A model generated the notes under the pieces. The model worked only from the letters and a program-made list of their open reading frames with translations, made no database searches and was not told the DNA's origin. This document shows, one piece after another, positions 9,069-64,000 of a DNA stretch of 64,000 nucleotides. Origin of the DNA: Spirochaetia bacterium (GTDB lineage: Bacteria > Spirochaetota > Spirochaetia > UBA9216); contig OY776510.1 in the NCBI GenBank assembly GCA_963675665.1, forward strand, positions 3,712,001 through 3,776,000. The letters are read 5' to 3'. The translations under genes and the position numbers were made by a program. Every line of letters starts with the position of its first letter. Position 1 is the first letter of the stretch.

Positions 9069-9164
9069 GGAAAAAATTACTTTTTTCCTTTTGAAGTTTG
9101 AAAACTCAAACTTCACATTTTATTCACCGCCCTCCATGGCGGGAATATAGTTTTTTTAAGGAGG
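9067..9164 (+). repeat. Three-hairpin intercistronic element, copy A
   Basis: AAGGAAAAAA-TTAC-TTTTTTCCTT; TGAAGTTTGA-AAAC-TCAAACTTCA; CCGCC-CTCCAT-GGCGG; then SD AAGGAGG. Same layout at 43158-43253(-) and 52695-52802(+). Confidence 0.75.
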
Positions 9165-43157: not shown

Positions 43158-43253
43158 CTCCTATTTTTTCCGCCATGGATGGCGGTATGTATTTGAGTAA
43201 GTTTGCTTAAGCAAACTTCAGATTTAAAAATTACATGGAAGTAATTTTTAAAT
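43158..43253 (-). repeat. Three-hairpin intercistronic element, copy B
   Basis: On - strand ATTTAAAAATTAC-TTCCAT-GTAATTTTTAAAT; TGAAGTTTGC-TTAA-GCAAACTT; CCGCC-ATCCAT-GGCGG; then ATAGGAG SD of xylA. Confidence 0.75.
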
Positions 43254-49903: not shown

Positions 49904-52717
49904 TTGAAGATTAAAAGTTTAATTTATTTGATAACAGGTATTTTTATATTTACCATACTCACCTCCTGCCCTTCTCCGCTTGAACCTGAAAAGCTTGCTT
50001 TGCTTAAGGATCTTGAAGCACCCAGGATTGTCATTACATCTCCGGCCGACTACAGCGAATACGCCACAGTTATCGAGCTTGAAGGCTATATTGAAGATAC
50101 ATCTCTTGCAAACCTGCCGGCCGACAGCGGGCTATCCGTTTCATACAGCATTCCCGGAACAAGCATCAACGGGACTGTTGATGTTAGTCTTCCCGACGGT
50201 TCTTTTTCGGGAATCATTAATGTGGCCGCGCTCAGCGGAGAAAAGGTGATTGAATTCAGCACTACTGATATAAACGGAAATTCAGCTTCTGCGTCTGTAA
50301 ATATTCTCAAACCTGAAGGTGGAGATATCTCCGGATTCACAGTCACGCCCGGCAACAGACAGGTAACAATATGCTGGGCCCCTGTTTCCGGCGCAGAGTC
50401 ATATTCGATATTTGAGTCGTCATACGGAGAGACTATAGAACCCGGAGAGATAACCGGAACAAGCTATACCTGGACCGGTCTTGAAAACGGCGAGATATAC
50501 AGCTTTCAGCTTACCGCGCACCTGCCCGTCGGAATCGGTGAAGATGCGTATTCCTCGACGGCTACAACAATGCCGCTTTCTCCCTTTAACCTCACTCCGG
50601 TGATAAAGAATACCGAACATAAAGCAATAACCATTGAATGGCCTGCTAATGATAATATCGACCGGTTCATCGTTGAACGCAGCGGCAGCCATCTCGGTCC
50701 ATGGGAAATAAAAAGGGTACTGACTCAAAATGTATTTACCGACGAAAAAGTTGAATACGATACTAACTACTATTACAGGATTACTCCTTCCGGCTTTACA
50801 GAGATAAACAGCCTCTGCGCCGGGAGCAGCCCCACCAGGTTCTCAGGTGACGATATCATCGCTACTTTGCCGTTGCCGGGCTCAATCACGCCCTTCTCGC
50901 TGCAAATCGATGATAACTATGCCTATATTGCAAACTTCAGAGACGGTTTAGCGATTGCTGATATATCGGACCCATACAATCCGATTATTGTTTCAAGTTA
51001 CGGCGTGGCTTCCACAGTGGAGATACGGGACATTTTCGTGAGAGACCGTATTGCATATCTTGCCGGTTATGACGACGGCCTTCTTCTTGTCGACATATCC
51101 GATATTGACAACCCCGTACTTCTATCCTCATGCAGCACACCCGGCAACGCGTTGGGAGTATATGTTTCCGGCGATTATGCGTATATAGCCGATGATTCTG
51201 AAAGAATATCTATCGTCGACATCTCAACCCCGGCTTCGGTAACAGACAGCTCATTGATATCCGGCTGCAGCACCGACGGGATTGCGGACAAAGTCCTTGT
51301 AAAGAACGGTTACGCCTATGTGGCTGCCGACGGGCTGGAGGTAATTGATGTATCCAATCCTCCGCTTGTAAATGATCTTTCAACAAAGGGAAGCTGGAGC
51401 AGCCTGGACGGAAAAATAAGCAAGGATATATACATCTCCGGTGAATATCTGTATATAGTGCTTCAACCCCCGCCTCCCGGCATTCCCCCGGGTCCGAGTT
51501 CCCTGCATATAATCGATATTTCAGTCCCTGCGAATGTAACGAACTCATCCGGTGTCGGCAGCTGTGAAATCTTAGGAAACGCGGAAGGCGTTACAGTATC
51601 CGGAAATCTCGCATACGTAGCATCATATGACGCCGATTTGCAGGTAATCGATGTATTTAATCCGGCAGCGCCGGTATTGGAAAGGACATACGCCACCTCC
51701 GGCGACCCGTTTGATGTAAAGGTTTCCGGTTATTACGCATATATCGCAGATCGCTACGGCAGCGGCCTCGTTGTATTGGATCTTGCAAAGCCCGGATCAC
51801 CTTCAATTGTTTCCGCTTCTGCGGACATGTACCGGACAAGCGATATAGAAATATTCGACGAATATGCCTATATTGCCGACGGCACTGACGGGTTAAAGAT
51901 TATGGATATATCCGAACCGGAAGAGATCTCACCGGCCTCCAATATTATTGAGTTTTCTCTCCCCGGCGAATGTCTTGAAATTAATATCCGCTATCCCTAT
52001 GCTTTTATAGCGGCACAGGGCTCAGGGCTTGTTGTCGTAAATATTGCTGATCCGCTTCATCCGTCCCTGCTTAGCAGCACTGAAACAACCCAGAATGCTA
52101 AGGATTTATATGTGCTGGGAAATTATGCATATGTTACGGACAGCGGATGCAGTCTTGAAATAATCGACATCACATTTCCGGAAACTCCTTCCATAGTTTC
52201 CACATGCGACACCGACGGGACTGTAAGCGGCATCACCGTATCCGGTGATTACGCATATATTTGCGCCGGAGGAAGCGGGCTTCAAATCATAGATATCTCC
52301 GATCCGCTCAGTCCGTATATTGCCGCATCCTGTACAAGCGCGGGAGGGGCGAGAAAAGCTGAAATCATCGGCAATTACGCCGTTGTCTCTTCAAATAGCG
52401 CAGGATTATATATTATTGATATTTCCGACCCGTCCGGAGTTACAAACACATCTATTGTAGCCAGCCATCCCGTAACAGGTCACGGATACAGCCTTGCAAT
52501 TGCCGGCGATTTTGTCTATGTCGGCGGAGACGAACGTTTCACGGTTGTGGATATAACCGACCCCGAATCTCCCTCAACCTTTTCCGGCTGCGCGCTGCCG
52601 ACACTCGGTATCGGCTACGGAATTGCCGTCGCAGACTCATACGCCTACATTGCAGACATTAATAGCGGACTTCAGATAATAAACCTCTTAGGAGGAATGA
52701 TAAAAAGTCCTCCATGA
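49904..52717 (+). CDS. Lipoprotein with Ig/FN3 domains and LVIVD beta-propeller repeats
   Basis: LTSC lipobox; FN3-like segments; about 14 repeats of YAYIA..GL.IIDIS.P. C-terminal GMIKSPP is encoded by the inserted mini-element. Confidence 0.88.
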   Translation: MKIKSLIYLITGIFIFTILTSCPSPLEPEKLALLKDLEAPRIVITSPADYSEYATVIELEGYIEDTSLANLPADSGLSVSYSIPGTSINGTVDVSLPDGSFSGIINVAALSGEKVIEFSTTDINGNSASASVNILKPEGGDISGFTVTPGNRQVTICWAPVSGAESYSIFESSYGETIEPGEITGTSYTWTGLENGEIYSFQLTAHLPVGIGEDAYSSTATTMPLSPFNLTPVIKNTEHKAITIEWPANDNIDRFIVERSGSHLGPWEIKRVLTQNVFTDEKVEYDTNYYYRITPSGFTEINSLCAGSSPTRFSGDDIIATLPLPGSITPFSLQIDDNYAYIANFRDGLAIADISDPYNPIIVSSYGVASTVEIRDIFVRDRIAYLAGYDDGLLLVDISDIDNPVLLSSCSTPGNALGVYVSGDYAYIADDSERISIVDISTPASVTDSSLISGCSTDGIADKVLVKNGYAYVAADGLEVIDVSNPPLVNDLSTKGSWSSLDGKISKDIYISGEYLYIVLQPPPPGIPPGPSSLHIIDISVPANVTNSSGVGSCEILGNAEGVTVSGNLAYVASYDADLQVIDVFNPAAPVLERTYATSGDPFDVKVSGYYAYIADRYGSGLVVLDLAKPGSPSIVSASADMYRTSDIEIFDEYAYIADGTDGLKIMDISEPEEISPASNIIEFSLPGECLEINIRYPYAFIAAQGSGLVVVNIADPLHPSLLSSTETTQNAKDLYVLGNYAYVTDSGCSLEIIDITFPETPSIVSTCDTDGTVSGITVSGDYAYICAGGSGLQIIDISDPLSPYIAASCTSAGGARKAEIIGNYAVVSSNSAGLYIIDISDPSGVTNTSIVASHPVTGHGYSLAIAGDFVYVGGDERFTVVDITDPESPSTFSGCALPTLGIGYGIAVADSYAYIADINSGLQIINLLGGMIKSPP

Positions 52718-52802
52718 CTTTTTATCATTTTGAAGTTTACAAACTTTGTTTGAAAACTTCACTATTCATTACCTGCATCCATGCAGGAATTTCTTATAGG
52801 AG
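52695..52802 (+). mobile_element. 108-bp mini-element with IS110-like ends; three-hairpin element copy C
   Basis: Begins GAATGATAAAAAGTC (identical to the IS left end) after TTAGGAG and ends AATTTCTTATAGGAG (12/15 match to the IS right end). Confidence 0.65.
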
Positions 52803-52827
52803 GAATGATAAAAAGTCTTCATGAGCT

Positions 52828-52980
52828 GGTGAATTGATATACTGCCTTAACTTTAATTGAGGCAGTAAGGTTACTGTTCGACATTTTTACTGGTCCGCGA
52901 GACCGTTTAGGAGATTGAAGAGCCGTAACCGAAACATTCAATGGTCTGCGAGACCGGATAGGAGAATGGAACAATTCACC
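52828..52980 (+). ncRNA. Predicted bridge RNA (IS110 copy 1)
   Basis: Closing stem GGTGAATTG/CAATTCACC, 5' hairpin ACTGCC/GGCAGT, and two homologous loops each capped by GGTC-N-GCGA-GACC and followed by TAGGAG. Confidence 0.8.
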
Positions 52981-53015
52981 GTATAGGCACTGCTTCAAAC
53001 TATTGGAGATAGAAC

Positions 53016-54128
53016 ATGAAGATGAGTATTGGCGTGGATCTTCACAAAACGCAGTTTACAGTATGCCTTTTAAGTGAAGACCGAAAAATTGATCAATTGG
53101 GAATGTATCCGACCAGCGGAAATGGTTATGGAGCATTTCTGAAAATGCTGGATGAATATTGTGAAGAGGAATATGAGTTGAGAGCAGCGGTGGAAACAAC
53201 CGGGAATGCCCGTTATTTCCGCAATAAACTGTTAAAGGCTGGAGTCGAAGTGGTTGTAGTGAATACTTTGAAATTCAAGGTAGTGAATGAATCTGTAAAA
53301 AAGACAGACAAACATGATGCACGCACCCTGGCGGAGTTTCTTGAGAAAGACATGCTGCCTGAATCGATATTATGTTCCCAAGAGAGTGAGGATATTCGAA
53401 GGGTGCTGAAATCCAGGTCGATACTGGTAAAATCTGTTGTGTCGTTAAAGAACCAGGTGCATGGCTTATTACTTGGTTATGGAATAGAGACCAAACGCGG
53501 ACAGCTGCAGAGTAAAAAAGAAAGGCAGCGAATCCTGAACGGTCTCGAGGACCACGACTTTTACGGAAGCGCTGCCAAAACGGTAATACCGTTACTGGAT
53601 ATGATAGATAATCAGGCATCGCAAGTCAAGCAGCTTGAAAAGGTTTTGGCTGAGCTTGTGGAGGACGATGAAGATGTTGAGCTTCTGCAGACAATACCAG
53701 GCGTGGGTCTAATAACAGCAGCAACAGTAAGAGCCTATACAGACGATATCGGCAGATATGATAGTGCGAAGAAATATGCAGCAAACGCCGGGCTTGTGCC
53801 ATGGGTGCAGAACTCAAATATGACAATACATCATGGACATATAACAAAGCGTGGGCCTGTAGAACTGAGGACAGCCTTCGTACAGATGGTGATGGGAATG
53901 GTTCGTATGCAAAAGAAGACCGGGACGTACCGAATAATGACGAAGTATGCAGCGATGAAGAAGCAGAAAGGCTCGGGTAAGAGTGTAATAGCTGCCGCCC
54001 GCAAGATGAGCACTTTGGTATATACAATTTTAAAAACCAGAGAGCCGTTTGATCCGATGAAAATGGCTTTTAGAAAAGAATACAGGGAAATGCAGGCAGC
54101 AGCATGGGAAGCTGTAATGGTCGGTTGA
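53016..54128 (+). CDS. IS110-family DEDD recombinase/transposase
   Basis: IGVDLHK, VETTG, KTDKHDA, IPGVG, AGLVPWVQNS, HITKRG. Confidence 0.96.
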   Translation: MKMSIGVDLHKTQFTVCLLSEDRKIDQLGMYPTSGNGYGAFLKMLDEYCEEEYELRAAVETTGNARYFRNKLLKAGVEVVVVNTLKFKVVNESVKKTDKHDARTLAEFLEKDMLPESILCSQESEDIRRVLKSRSILVKSVVSLKNQVHGLLLGYGIETKRGQLQSKKERQRILNGLEDHDFYGSAAKTVIPLLDMIDNQASQVKQLEKVLAELVEDDEDVELLQTIPGVGLITAATVRAYTDDIGRYDSAKKYAANAGLVPWVQNSNMTIHHGHITKRGPVELRTAFVQMVMGMVRMQKKTGTYRIMTKYAAMKKQKGSGKSVIAAARKMSTLVYTILKTREPFDPMKMAFRKEYREMQAAAWEAVMVG

Positions 54129-54191
54129 TATCCGACTAGATCATAAGCTTATATTTTTAGCTTGTGGTTGACTTTTTATAGGAGAATAAAT

Positions 54192-56381
54192 ATGAAAAAA
54201 GGATTTCAAACAATAAAAACAATACTTTTTGCGGGACTCATCCTGCTACTGACTACCCTGCTTCCCCTCACTGCATTCTCCCAAAGCGGGGAAGTCGATT
54301 TAAACGAATATTACGCCTACCCGGTTTCCGCCGGGGCTTATTATCATCAGCTTTCGGGGCTGGGCAACAAAGCCCTTGCCGACTTCAGCATAAATGAGAT
54401 TTCCAGCGAAGCGCGCGTGCCGATTCCCGGTATTCCCGTACTGCAGCCGCTTGTCAGGGCCGGATACCTTAGCTACGGTTTTACCGGCAGCGTTGAAGAA
54501 CTGCACCAGGACTGGACACATTTTCATGTCTTCGGCGGGCCGGGCGTTGCCTACTGTTCCCGTATATCACGCGAATTCGAAATCGGCGCTGATCTTTTCG
54601 GGGCGCTGACACAGTCATATTTTACGGAACTGGTTTTCAACGGCGTCCAGGAAACACAGGGGCAATTGAATATACTGGCAGGACTGTCGGGGCGTCTTGC
54701 CTTGAATCCGTCCTATAATTTTTCCATATCGGTTAACCCGGCGCTGAATTACCTGTACGGGCTCGGCCCGCTGCATGATTACGACGGATTTACGTTCGGG
54801 GTCGGCTTTTCGGGTACATACCGCTTCGGACAGGACCCCGACGCGGCGCAGTCTTCAATAAAGGCGATACGTTTCGACGATGTTGATCTGCCTCCGCTGT
54901 TTGCCGCGATGCAGAGTTACTATGTAAAAAACCCGGCGGGAACGCTGACAATTTCCAACAAGGAAAAATACACGCTTGAAGGCGTCTCCCTGTCATTTAT
55001 GCAGCCGGGATTCATGGATTCGCCGAGCCCTATGGCGTCGGATATTGTTCTTGAGCCGGGCGAGAGTATAGAGGTCCCCATCACCCTGACTTTTAATAAC
55101 GAGGTTTTTTCAACCCAGGGGGTCACCCCGCTTACAGGCGAAATAATCGCAGGTTATACCGTACGCGGGCGCGAGGTTGAGCAGAGACAGTCGGTTACCT
55201 ACGATCTGCATGATCGCAACGCCCTTACGTGGGACGACGACCGGAAGGCCGCCGCATTTATTACAGCCCAGGACAGCGCCGTCCGCAACTATTCAAGCTA
55301 TATCCGCCAGATTCACCGCGACGCGGTCAGACCTTATATCAGCAGCAACCTTCAGTTTGCCATGCAGGTATTCAACGCCCTCGGCGAACTGGGCATTCTG
55401 TACCAGATTGATCCGACCGCTCCGTTTACCGAGGTCCAGGGCGACACCTTCGTCGTCGACTCAATCAGCCTGCCCCGCGAAACGCTAAAACGGCTGACCG
55501 GCGACTGCGACGATCTTACAGTACTTTTCTGCACAATGCTTGAATCAATCGGCATCGAATCCGCGCTGGTTACCGTTCCGGGACATATCTTCTGCGCTTT
55601 CAACACCGATGTTGAGTCTTCGGACTACATGATGATAAACCCCGACCGCAACCAGATAATCGAAGTTGACGGCAACATCTGGATACCGGTTGAAATTACA
55701 ATGATAGGAAAACACAGCTTTACGGAAGCCTGGAACAAGGGATACTCGGAATTCGCGGAATGGGACGCCGAACCCGACCGCAGGGGTTTTTATAAAACCG
55801 GCGATGCACAGGGCATATTCCGGCCTGTAGTCCTGCGCGAAACCGATCTTGGGCTTCAGTACGGAGACGATGAGGCGGTTGTTTCGGCATTTGAAAAGGA
55901 CCTTGATTCCCTGTCGCAGTCAATCTTAAAACCTGCCAAAGCCGACGCTGAGGCAAAAGGCACCCCGAAAGCCTGGAATTCCTACGGGGTAGCCGCGGCA
56001 AAACTCGGCGCGTACGGCACTGCGGAAACCGCCTTTGACAAGGCCGTAAAATCAAAACCCGATTACACAAGCGCCAAGCTGAACCTCGGCTCACTGTATT
56101 ACATAATGGAAAAATATTCAGATGCGTTTAAAGTTTACCAGAATATCGAACAGAATGCCGCAAACCTGAATATTTCCGACCGTACCATGTTCAATCTTTA
56201 CCTTAACATGAGCAAAACAAGCTATGCTCTTGAGAAAAATGACGAGGCTGATTCCTATTTCCGCAAAGCCACTCAGCTTGACGCTGATAAAGCCGCCGAT
56301 TTCGCCTACCTCGGCACAGGCGGTACAGGTGTCGCAAGAGCTGCCGAGGCTGCTGACAGTAAGATATCGTTTTTTGAATAG
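54192..56381 (+). CDS. Exported protein with transglutaminase-like and TPR domains
   Basis: Signal peptide; GDCDD, VPGHIF, WIPVEIT; C-terminal TPR helices. Confidence 0.8.
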   Translation: MKKGFQTIKTILFAGLILLLTTLLPLTAFSQSGEVDLNEYYAYPVSAGAYYHQLSGLGNKALADFSINEISSEARVPIPGIPVLQPLVRAGYLSYGFTGSVEELHQDWTHFHVFGGPGVAYCSRISREFEIGADLFGALTQSYFTELVFNGVQETQGQLNILAGLSGRLALNPSYNFSISVNPALNYLYGLGPLHDYDGFTFGVGFSGTYRFGQDPDAAQSSIKAIRFDDVDLPPLFAAMQSYYVKNPAGTLTISNKEKYTLEGVSLSFMQPGFMDSPSPMASDIVLEPGESIEVPITLTFNNEVFSTQGVTPLTGEIIAGYTVRGREVEQRQSVTYDLHDRNALTWDDDRKAAAFITAQDSAVRNYSSYIRQIHRDAVRPYISSNLQFAMQVFNALGELGILYQIDPTAPFTEVQGDTFVVDSISLPRETLKRLTGDCDDLTVLFCTMLESIGIESALVTVPGHIFCAFNTDVESSDYMMINPDRNQIIEVDGNIWIPVEITMIGKHSFTEAWNKGYSEFAEWDAEPDRRGFYKTGDAQGIFRPVVLRETDLGLQYGDDEAVVSAFEKDLDSLSQSILKPAKADAEAKGTPKAWNSYGVAAAKLGAYGTAETAFDKAVKSKPDYTSAKLNLGSLYYIMEKYSDAFKVYQNIEQNAANLNISDRTMFNLYLNMSKTSYALEKNDEADSYFRKATQLDADKAADFAYLGTGGTGVARAAEAADSKISFFE

Positions 56382-61852: not shown

Positions 61853-61914
61853 CTTAATCTCCTATAAAAAGTCAACCACAAGCTAAAAATATAAGCTTAT
61901 GATCTGGTCGGATA

Positions 61915-63027
61915 TCAACCGACCATTACAGCTTCCCATGCTGCTGCCTGCATTTCCCTGTATTCTTTTCTAAAAGCCATTTTCATCGGATCAAACGGCT
62001 CTCTGGTTTTTAAAATTGTATATACCAAAGTGCTCATCTTGCGGGCGGCAGCTATTACACTCTTACCCGAGCCTTTCTGCTTCTTCATCGCTGCATACTT
62101 CGTCATTATTCGGTACGTCCCGGTCTTCTTTTGCATACGAACCATTCCCATCACCATCTGTACGAAGGCTGTCCTCAGTTCTACAGGCCCACGCTTTGTT
62201 ATATGTCCATGATGTATTGTCATATTTGAGTTCTGCACCCATGGCACAAGCCCGGCGTTTGCTGCATATTTCTTCGCACTATCATATCTGCCGATATCGT
62301 CTGTATAGGCTCTTACTGTTGCTGCTGTTATTAGACCCACGCCTGGTATTGTCTGCAGAAGCTCAACATCTTCATCGTCCTCCACAAGCTCAGCCAAAAC
62401 CTTTTCAAGCTGCTTGACTTGCGATGCCTGATTATCTATCATATCCAGTAACGGTATTACCGTTTTGGCAGCGCTTCCGTAAAAGTCGTGGTCCTCGAGA
62501 CCGTTCAGGATTCGCTGCCTTTCTTTTTTACTCTGCAGCTGTCCGCGTTTGGTCTCTATTCCATAACCAAGTAATAAGCCATGCACCTGGTTCTTTAACG
62601 ACACAACAGATTTTACCAGTATCGACCTGGATTTCAGCACCCTTCGAATATCCTCACTCTCTTGGGAACATAATATCGATTCAGGCAGCATGTCTTTCTC
62701 AAGAAACTCCGCCAGGGTGCGTGCATCATGTTTGTCTGTCTTTTTTACAGATTCATTCACTACCTTGAATTTCAAAGTATTCACTACAACCACTTCGACT
62801 CCAGCCTTTAACAGTTTATTGCGGAAATAACGGGCATTCCCGGTTGTTTCCACCGCTGCTCTCAACTCATATTCCTCTTCACAATATTCATCCAGCATTT
62901 TCAGAAATGCTCCATAACCATTTCCGCTGGTCGGATACATTCCCAATTGATCAATTTTTCGGTCTTCACTTAAAAGGCATACTGTAAACTGCGTTTTGTG
63001 AAGATCCACGCCAATACTCATCTTCAT
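61915..63027 (-). CDS. IS110-family DEDD recombinase/transposase
   Basis: Protein identical to 53016..54128. Confidence 0.96.
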   Translation of the reverse strand: MKMSIGVDLHKTQFTVCLLSEDRKIDQLGMYPTSGNGYGAFLKMLDEYCEEEYELRAAVETTGNARYFRNKLLKAGVEVVVVNTLKFKVVNESVKKTDKHDARTLAEFLEKDMLPESILCSQESEDIRRVLKSRSILVKSVVSLKNQVHGLLLGYGIETKRGQLQSKKERQRILNGLEDHDFYGSAAKTVIPLLDMIDNQASQVKQLEKVLAELVEDDEDVELLQTIPGVGLITAATVRAYTDDIGRYDSAKKYAANAGLVPWVQNSNMTIHHGHITKRGPVELRTAFVQMVMGMVRMQKKTGTYRIMTKYAAMKKQKGSGKSVIAAARKMSTLVYTILKTREPFDPMKMAFRKEYREMQAAAWEAVMVG

Positions 63028-63062
63028 GTTCTATCTCCAATAGTTTGAAGCAGTGCCTATAC

Positions 63063-63215
63063 GGTGAATTGTTCCATTCTCCTATCCGGTCTCGCAGACC
63101 ATTGAATGTTTCGGTTACGGCTCTTCAATCTCCTAAACGGTCTCGCGGACCAGTAAAAATGTCGAACAGTAACCTTACTGCCTCAATTAAAGTTAAGGCA
63201 GTATATCAATTCACC
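63063..63215 (-). ncRNA. Predicted bridge RNA (IS110 copy 2)
   Basis: Reverse complement of 52828-52980. Confidence 0.8.
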
Positions 63216-64000
63216 AGCTCATGAAGACTTTTTATCATTCCTCCTATAAAATACAGGCGCGAACCGAAGTCTCCTACAAGCCTCGTTTTTTCGGTGTAGC
63301 CCGTTCCGGTGAATTGATGGTAAGGTCTTATTCCAGCGAACATCAGTTCGTCGCCGAAAGCTTCAAATTCCTCTACCTCGTTTTCCAACATATAGTTATT
63401 GCTGATAACAGTGTGAAGAATACCGTCGGCCTTCAGCTTTATCGGGCTGATATGATTTACCAGATTACCGAATGCACGGATATTCACATACTGTCTTCTT
63501 GTTATAACTTTATACATCATATCCGGTTCAAGGCCAACAGTTTTAAGCTGCTCAAAACCTCCGTTTGGTTTCTGCAGAATCTGGTAATAACCGAGAACGG
63601 CATTTTTTTTATCTTTGCTTACAGTAATCCATAACGGCTGGTTATCTGAAAACGGAGATTTTAACCGGTAAAAATCTCCGTACTGAAAGAGGCTGCGCCG
63701 GCTTTTATAGTCGGTTATCTGCTGTTTTATTGTTTTCTTTTCAAAATTGGAAAGTTTCGTCAGATCCAGTTCATAGCCCAGAAGACCGAAAGCTGCAACA
63801 TTGAATCTTGTCTCAAGAGGCGTATTACGCAGTACCTGATGCGAAGGCGCGGCGCTTACGTGCGCCCCCATTACCGACGGCGGGTATACCATTGAAGTAC
63901 CGTACTGAATACTGATTCTTTCAACCGCGTCGGTATTGTCGCTTGTCCAGGTCTGGGGCATATAGTACAGCATTCCGAGATCAAAGCGGTTTCCGCCGCT
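63206..64000 (-). CDS. GH36 alpha-galactosidase, 5'-truncated by the window; C-terminus altered by the IS
   Basis: SGGNRFDLGMLYYMPQTWTSDNTDA, GAHVS, LGYELDL, GDFYRL, GDFGSRL. Confidence 0.92.
   Translation of the reverse strand, partial: SGGNRFDLGMLYYMPQTWTSDNTDAVERISIQYGTSMVYPPSVMGAHVSAAPSHQVLRNTPLETRFNVAAFGLLGYELDLTKLSNFEKKTIKQQITDYKSRRSLFQYGDFYRLKSPFSDNQPLWITVSKDKKNAVLGYYQILQKPNGGFEQLKTVGLEPDMMYKVITRRQYVNIRAFGNLVNHISPIKLKADGILHTVISNNYMLENEVEEFEAFGDELMFAGIRPYHQFTGTGYTEKTRLVGDFGSRLYFIGGMIKSLHELVN

Follow-up and report, generated by a model that had tools for sequence, protein, structure and literature searches.

A 108-bp three-hairpin repeat with IS110-type ends stands in tandem with an IS110-family insertion sequence in a Spirochaetia bacterium

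The unit and its locus

Between an LVIVD-repeat gene and a TPR gene of a Spirochaetia bacterium (assembly GCA_963675665.1, contig OY776510.1; genome labelled here G000) lies a 108-bp unit, stacked in tandem with a complete insertion sequence (IS) of the IS110 family. The stretch analysed, referred to here as the window, comprises 64,000 nucleotides (contig positions 3,712,001 to 3,776,000 of the forward strand), and coordinates are positions in this 64-kb window unless marked as genome positions. The unit (52695–52802, plus strand), the top nhmmer match of its family, has AGGAG on each side, begins with GAATGATAAAAAGTC and ends with AATTTCTTATAGGAG. Its left AGGAG (52690–52694, plus strand) is the target-side copy of a core common to target and donor.

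The left junction of the unit reads TTAGGAG-GAATGATAAAAAGTC at 52688–52709 (here and below, a hyphen after AGGAG marks the joint). A 24-nt direct repeat, TAGGAGGAATGATAAAAAGTC(C/T)TC, occurs at 52689–52712 and again at 52797–52820 (23/24 identical, spacing 108), its second copy being the left junction of the adjacent IS. The left ends of unit and IS are identical at 15/15 nt, and the IS left end matches another copy, unit 2291898, at 22/23 nt with one indel. Read directly, the right ends AATTTCTTATAGGAG (52788–52802) and GACTTTTTATAGGAG (54170–54184) of unit and IS agree at 12 of 15 positions, and the donor site proposed below for the IS, ATAGGAG-GAATG, is perfect in the unit. With IS-like termini on both sides and no recombinase gene, the unit has the make-up of a miniature inverted-repeat transposable element (MITE). 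It folds into three hairpins, at about 52696–52729, 52731–52761 and 52772–52787 (RNA fold z of -5.76).

The LVIVD gene (49904–52717, plus strand; an open reading frame (ORF) matching Pfam LVIVD at 2.9e-92) now ends ..NLLGGMIKSPP (stop), with six codons inside the inserted unit. Downstream of the IS, a 7-nt spacer, AATAAAT, leads to the TPR gene, which starts with ATG at 54192 (spacer and gene, 54185–56381, plus strand; an ORF matching TPR families) and takes its Shine-Dalgarno (SD) sequence from the IS right end. Deletion of 52695–54184 in silico yields CTC TTA GGA GAA TAA AT ATG; LVIVD would then end ..NLLGE (stop), 2 nt before the TPR ATG. An earlier note on this DNA had described the TTAGGAG left junction as a repeat of that of the IS, the other end as 12/15 identical to the IS right end, and the same restored junction and ..NLLGE ending after deletion of unit and IS. 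The 23/24 direct repeat confirms the first of these, direct reading agrees with the second, and the third was reproduced.

The adjacent IS110-family element

The IS (52803–54184, plus strand) measures 1,382 bp counting the right AGGAG, its boundary being ambiguous within AGGAG. As in the IS110 group, a long structured left end of 213 nt is combined with a short right end of 56 nt. The non-coding left end (52803–53015, plus strand) is presumed to encode a bridge RNA; it folds with -64.2 kcal/mol (z of -4.45) and contains two repeated loop modules. Of these, the putative target-binding loop A (52879–52917, plus strand) has the 5′ arm CATTTTTACT and the 3′ arm GTTTAGGAG, and the putative donor-binding loop B (52930–52968, plus strand) has the 5′ arm CATTC, the complement of GAATG, and the 3′ arm GGATAGGAG. 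The gene that follows (53016–54128, plus strand) encodes a DEDD recombinase of 370 aa, with matches to PF01548 (DEDD_Tnp_IS110, 9.3e-18) and PF02371 (Transposase_20, 1.4e-17).

Within the right end (54129–54184, plus strand), GACTTTTTAT (54170–54179) is the inverted partner of ATAAAAAGTC (52808–52817), forming a subterminal inverted repeat of 10 bp. Such repeats are given as 2–3 bp for the IS110 group, a range that this one exceeds, and as 7–17 bp for IS1111 (PMC11208160); the IS is intermediate between the two groups as described there. Read by eye across the joined right and left ends, TTGACT (54168–54173) is followed by 17 nt and TG-n-TAAAAA, and could be the -35 element of a junction promoter.

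Fifteen copies of the IS, 99.4–100% identical, are present in the genome. All 15 read AGGAG-GAATGAT...TTTTTATAGGAG, have an ATG 5–7 nt further on and point the same way as the gene downstream. As every copy lies at an AGGAG before an ATG, the IS lands in the SD sequence and its right end rebuilds it.

The window contains another copy of this IS (61862–63240, minus strand), also at TATAGGAG before a start codon. An unrelated IS110-family recombinase (23% identical, 387 aa) is found at seven places in the genome, 13667–14299 (minus strand) of the window among them, and a further, more distant family member at genome positions 4457074–4457928.

Guide loops and their covariation

Relatives of the IS, with 52–79% amino acid identity in the recombinase, occur in genomes and metagenome-assembled genomes of Spirochaetota, Desulfobacterota, Patescibacteria, Chloroflexota, Bacteroidota and Lentisphaerota. 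Their ends are nearly unchanged (GAATGATAAAAAG... and ...TTGACTTTTTATAGGAG), and since these ends are conserved across phyla they belong to the IS: the units have IS ends, not the reverse. Flanks were surveyed at 80 loci of relatives (L025–L104), 48 of which have the right-end motif and at least 12 nt of flank. An ATG lies 3–10 nt downstream of the right end in 44 of these 48; the left-end motif is present at 44 of the loci and is preceded by GGAG at 40 of them.

The 3′ arm of loop A, GTTTAGGAG here, is replaced by GCAAAGGAG, GTACAGGAG and GTTAAGGAG in other multi-copy lineages. Compared across four multi-copy lineages, this arm matches the left target flank of its own lineage at 2.07–2.70 of 4 variable positions and those of the other lineages at 0.6–1.8. 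In almost every lineage the 5′ arm of loop A opens with CAT, which is complementary to ATG. Contiguous pairing of the 5′ arm CATTTTTACT would predict a 5-nt spacer, yet 12/15 sites have 6 nt.

Loop B follows the ends of the element itself. Its 5′ arm tracks nucleotides 1–5 of the left end (GAATG/CATTC, GTATG/CATAC, GCACG/CGTGC and GCATG/CATGC), the exceptions being L077, with one mismatch, and L055, which pairs solely through G:T wobbles. The 3′ arm of loop B, (G/A)ATAGGAG, is identical to the right-end sequence ATAGGAG. Covariation of the arms with target flanks and with donor ends, characteristic of the two loops of the IS110 group, is thus found in this subgroup. By the geometry of IS621, as described in PMC11208160, loop A would bind the target and loop B the donor, with ATAGGAG-GAATG as the donor site.

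Locus L053 of this survey shows another kind of stacking on the regenerated target: past the recombinase gene, the right end of an IS relative is repeated in tandem as a 29-nt copy (TTGAGCTCACGGTTGACTTTTTATAGGAG).

A family of units in one genome

Dozens of related units were returned from the genome by blastn (best E of 5e-27), the closest being 84% identical to the 108-bp unit, and an iterated nhmmer search found 88 copies, of which 56 extend to the left edge of the model and 70 to its right edge. The genome-wide search proposed in the earlier note thus shows that the unit is no one-off but belongs to a family of 88 copies sharing its ends and its AGGAG flanks.

The ends of the family consensus, AGGAG-GAATGATAAAA and TTTTTATAGGAG, are the IS termini. 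On the left, the consensus AGGAGGAATGATAAAA is conserved at 0.73–0.95 per base (0.54 at one base) and the AGGAG before it at 0.77–0.95, with an A/T-rich, unconserved flank further out; on the right, the consensus reads GGGAATTTTTTATAGGAG, or TTTTTTATAGGAG, with AGGAG close to invariant. Exact occurrences of AGGAGGAATGATAAAA number 29 in the genome and those of the reversed control motif 0. With dozens of related units and this excess over the control, the likeness between unit and IS ends is not due to chance.

The copies are dispersed and carry the IS-type target signature, AGGAG on both sides, as would be expected of a MITE. An ATG lies 5–7 nt downstream of 49 of the 70 right ends, whereas an IS follows directly in five cases and another unit in at least four. 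Among the 43 units with both ends scored, 15 have a perfect donor site ATAGGAG-GAATG.

Units also form arrays of 5, 3, 2 and 2 members. Within tandem arrays units are 95–99% identical, whereas unlinked units are mostly at most 86% identical; the best unlinked pairs reach 92% and, over 87 nt, 96.6%, and closely similar units otherwise occur only within arrays. The five-unit array lies outside the window at genome positions 1652333–1652891 (92–99% identical), its first unit without a left AGGAG and its internal left ends reading GATTTATGAT rather than GAATGAT. Two further units lie inside the window, at 43158–43249 (minus strand) and 9076–9163 (plus strand).

A shared target and the tandem stack

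A unit right end directly precedes the IS in six of the 15 IS copies. The tandem stack arises because the unit right end regenerates the IS target; having supplied the target, the unit ends up upstream of the IS. The motif T[AT]TAGGAG-N5-7-ATG occurs 62 times in the genome, 21 of these at unit ends, the six occupied ones included. Enrichment of the IS at units beyond this target preference was tested for and rejected (P(at least 6/15) = 0.4). The earlier note had held that the unit regenerates the TAGGAG target and so permits serial insertion, and both the six IS copies and several of the arrays do sit on unit right ends.

The two partners of these stacks differ in age. The six IS-adjacent units differ from each other (at most 90% identical, for 894942 versus 4930172), whereas their IS copies are 99.9–100% identical over the IS core.

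The TD-2 core

The minus strand of the unit matches the Rfam family TD-2 (RF03162) over the full length of the model (positions 1–98) with 44.7 bits and an E-value of 8.2e-5. This is below the gathering cut-off of 48.7 bits, which 18 other copies in G000 exceed. Throughout this genome the model strand is opposite to the downstream gene. For TD-1, no match was found at E-values up to 1 in the window region or up to 0.1 in eight loci of relatives. In Weinberg 2007 (PMC1950547), the TD-1 and TD-2 motifs are described solely from Treponema denticola, with function unknown, and TD-1 is judged to be 'usually in a 5′ regulatory configuration'. No literature link between TD motifs and IS110 was found.

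Hairpins 1 and 2 covary through compensatory changes in 34 full-length units, in an alignment where hairpin 3 is misaligned, and their loops keep TCCATG. The loops of hairpins 1 and 3 (52708–52713 and 52778–52783) keep (C/T)TCCATG family-wide. UCC in the hairpin-3 loop can pair with GGA of the right SD sequence in 32–34 of the 34 units, and CCUCC in loop 1 with the left AGGAGG; these predicted pairings suggest a possible role in masking the SD sequence. Hairpin 3 with the adjoining T-run scores as terminator-like.

Across a sample of 151 genomes of the class, G000 included, TD-2 was found only in the family of G000 (G000 and 4/6 others sampled) and in the genus g38. A unit with IS-like ends is present in a sister genus within the family of G000 (genome G008). 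In g38, all four complete genomes (2.7–2.8 Mb) contain TD-2, with 19–25 matches each and a top score of 95 bits. A recombinase query that did match when run on other genomes gave no homologue in these four. At 16 g38 loci (21 matches), the unit model aligns only from positions 6–14 to positions 84–107, and the units carry an nTGAAAAAT hairpin base; AGGAG-GAATGAT was not present in their left flanks, nor TTTTATAGGAG and an adjacent ATG in their right flanks. In these genomes (G048, G075, G120 and G159; loci L137–L152) the units are often in tandem and away from start codons.

Presence and age of units in relatives

The only syntenic relative found is a metagenome contig (L105) whose TPR protein is 79% identical. 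There, an LVIVD-like ORF ends ...GLYIIDLYQ (stop), and 13 nt (AAGAGGATTAAAA) separate it from the TPR ATG, with neither unit nor IS. The earlier note had looked to relatives for empty sites and, against its own reading, for IS-free orthologous loci already holding the segment; the compact junction at L105 is of the first kind and not of the second. Two other candidates were rejected: the TPR orthologue of G003 (68% nucleotide identity) as an empty site, because its upstream gene is different, and a unit of G004 (L016), preceded by ATAAACCTCT, as an orthologous locus, because its upstream 188-aa ORF has no tblastn match in G000.

Units are present in 5/5 congeners, and 28 unit matches in their loci gave a downstream ORF as a query for orthologues. 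Twelve clear orthologues have no G000 unit by hidden Markov model (HMM); among eight that were aligned, four show a diverged or shortened unit, three are clean absences and one is unclear. One of the absences is at L120, where the unit of G003 faces TAA-AACGGAG-AAAAAA-ATG in G000, and the others are cases from G002 and G005. Presence and absence are thus polymorphic (L105 and L120), among relatives distant enough that exact junctions are not reconstructible. Units shared at orthologous genes, together with some turnover, make the family older than the species splits.

Among the congeners, G004 has just an IS110-family member 22% identical to the recombinase, and G005, where no intact IS copy was found, has (L015 about 1501–1608, G005:C379) a solo IS left end of 108 nt, 89% identical, which is preceded by TTTAGGAG and ends inside loop A. 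This remnant indicates that the IS lineage visited the genus earlier.

Origin of the unit

The 108-bp unit is probably an old, non-autonomous MITE-like chimera, in which a TD-2 core is joined to IS110 donor ends, and which was moved by an IS110 recombinase. We infer its placement by such a recombinase because only in the family of G000 do IS-ended units sit on AGGAG-flanked SD sites, in contrast to the units of g38. In such a chimera the TD-2 core would form the interior, and the termini, GAATGATAAAA... and ...TTTTATAGGAG, would derive from the IS110 subgroup. The target loop would read a T/A-rich AGGAG SD site and the donor loop the joined ends ATAGGAG-GAATG. A recombinase of the subgroup would have put the unit into the AGGAG overlapping the LVIVD stop codon, upstream of the TPR start, and the unit right end would have rebuilt the T-rich stretch, AGGAG, spacer and ATG as a fresh target, into which the active IS, in its recent 15-copy burst, would have inserted much later to give the tandem stack.

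Strong strain would be expected in a double-stranded circle of 108 bp, and this is one of several points that weigh against movement by the recombinase. Left-end motif counts are close to IS copy numbers in five further genomes that host the IS subgroup, so no miniature family is present there. In G000 itself, GAATG is read in only 19/50 left ends, and the partner of the fifth left-end base changes with it (G-C in 16, A-U in 9 and U-A in 4 of 34 units), so that structure, not sequence, is kept and under selection. Unlinked units, mostly at most 86% identical, compare with at least 99.4% for the IS, and the active IS has therefore not visibly amplified them. In contigs from four sequencing runs, where the unit and IS arrangement stands at normal depth, no join of 52694 to 52803, 52802 to 54185 or 52694 to 54185 and no circle joint was found, contigs being prone to drop rare forms. 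The five congeners gave no close homologue of the recombinase, although two of the four that also have no left-end remnant are fragmented assemblies (320 and 480 contigs). At seven of the genes queried from the congeners, G000 also has an upstream unit by HMM, and such sharing at orthologous genes fits retained function as well as it fits old insertion.

Movement in trans is described for related systems: a 22-bp donor suffices with bridge RNA in trans (PMC11208160), mini-IS constructs move with transposase and non-coding RNA in trans (PMC11187229), and a 2025 publication on ISPpu9 describes a stacked MITE-like partner forming minicircles (PMC12288879). The earlier note had proposed a miniature element mobilized in trans by the RNA-guided recombinase. 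The transposase-less make-up, the two IS110 ends and their match to the donor-loop arms support that proposal; recent mobilization does not follow, given the divergence of unlinked units and the congeners in which no such IS was found.

The strongest competitor, less likely but to be taken seriously, is a resident structured 5′ leader of TD-2/TD-1 type that was never moved by IS110 but spread or was retained otherwise. Its likeness to the IS would stem from shared constraints (an SD sequence, an A/T-rich leader and a TGnTAAAA-like box) or from very old ancestry, and the IS would simply use its SD sequence. TD-2 is abundant in the four complete g38 genomes in which no recombinase homologue was found, on units with the nTGAAAAAT hairpin base; the hairpins covary, with a conserved TCCATG loop; units are kept at orthologous genes between species; the target motif alone explains the adjacency of IS and unit in six of 15 cases (P = 0.4); and a 5′ regulatory configuration is what was judged usual for TD-1 (PMC1950547). 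Convergence, however, would hardly produce left and right ends identical over 11 nt and 12 nt to IS termini conserved across phyla, nor 29 occurrences of the left motif against none for its reverse. Double AGGAG flanks on SD sites with an ATG occur only in the lineage whose units have IS ends, and the 108-bp unit disrupts a coding frame at its end, where the syntenic relative L105 has no unit. The earlier note had offered as its alternative that a resident repeat captured an IS end, and this is partly borne out: a three-hairpin core without IS ends does exist in the four g38 genomes in which no recombinase homologue was found.

Recent mobilization of the unit by the neighbouring IS is unlikely, and it is quite improbable that the active IS mobilizes it at present, whether by recent placement in trans or as a composite reaching from the unit left end to the IS right end. 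The unit ends fit the donor loop of this very IS perfectly, tandem arrays are 95–99% identical, and ISPpu9 yields several modular circles (PMC12288879). But the closest unit elsewhere is only 84% identical, the IS-adjacent units are far less alike than their IS copies, no composite or circle joint appears in the contigs of the four runs, and arrays can grow by unequal crossing-over too.

Least probable is a scar of the IS, left by a second tandem copy that lost its interior or by imprecise excision: both IS ends are present in the unit, a tandem 29-nt solo right end is known at L053 and a solo left end in G005, and contigs of runs X1 and X3 contain a left-end-plus-right-end joint, but the reading is contradicted by the interior of about 70 nt, which has no match in the IS and is homologous to 87 other units and to Rfam TD-2, also where the IS was not found.

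In runs X1 and X3 the joint links 52835 and 54165 through TGTTTA, at depths of 7.9 and 5.1 and with only 20 nt on its shorter side. It would correspond to a remnant of about 60 bp and is absent from the assembled genome. Runs X3 and X4 come from other strains of one organism, and a second organism, with a TPR about 96% identical, showed no coverage of the IS.

Discussion

An old MITE-like chimera would provide an origin and a placement rule for a structured repeat on record since 2007 with no function assigned. Repeats in this lineage contain the whole donor site of a bridge-RNA recombinase and are confined to the target type of that recombinase. The two lineages form a natural contrast, with IS ends on SD sites in one and no IS ends off SD sites in the other, by which one could test whether a donor of 12 nt is enough for hitch-hiking in nature. 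In the IS110 subgroup itself, guides over several phyla are aimed at ribosome-binding sites and the right end restores the site, and through this restoration insertions and stacks before genes can be tolerated. For annotation, units extend or truncate upstream ORFs, as with the six codons gained by LVIVD, and may pass for terminators or small RNAs (sRNAs).

More speculatively, and with rather less confidence than we place in the chimeric origin, the orphan TD-2 and TD-1 motifs might be mobile hairpin modules, one of which in this lineage gained the donor site of a bridge-RNA recombinase with a guide directed at SD and start-codon regions. It would thereby have become an RNA-guided MITE that installed a structured leader and a new ribosome-binding site before about 88 genes, many being kept by the host as leaders. 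Such retention could be reflected in the conserved positions and covarying hairpins, and the TCC loops could pair with GGA of the SD sequence.

IS110 members of the IS900/IS901/IS902 type insert between ribosome-binding site and start codon. Like the IS described here, they enter translation initiation signals in an orientation-specific manner; they differ from it in subgroup and hosts, and we know of no miniature partner for them.

As in TD-2 of T. denticola (PMC1950547), the repeat has three covarying hairpins, many copies per genome and no assigned function, but the 108-bp unit scores below the family cut-off (44.7 against 48.7 bits) and the model matches it antisense to the gene downstream. 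The TD-2 units of g38, which reach 95 bits, are unlike those of G000 in having neither AGGAG-GAATGAT nor TTTTATAGGAG ends and in lying off start codons. With IS621 (Durrant 2024, PMC11208160) and the seekRNA mini-IS (PMC11187229), as described there, the IS shares a DEDD recombinase, a structured left end with two loops and covarying guides. It differs in an AGGAG common to target and donor over 5 nt, in its 10-bp inverted repeat and in its translation-start target. The closest counterpart of the unit is MITEPpu9 of Pseudomonas putida KT2440, partner of ISPpu9 (PMC12288879), likewise a short, transposase-less element with IS110-like ends that is both dispersed and stacked on its IS, and for which use of the IS machinery in trans has been proposed. 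MITEPpu9, as described in that source, lies downstream of tnp, carries the sRNA gene ssr9, has REP targets and eight copies, and its minicircles have been observed, whereas the unit described here has 88 copies, a TD-2 three-hairpin core and an SD target, gave no circle joint in the contigs of the four runs, and lies upstream of its IS.

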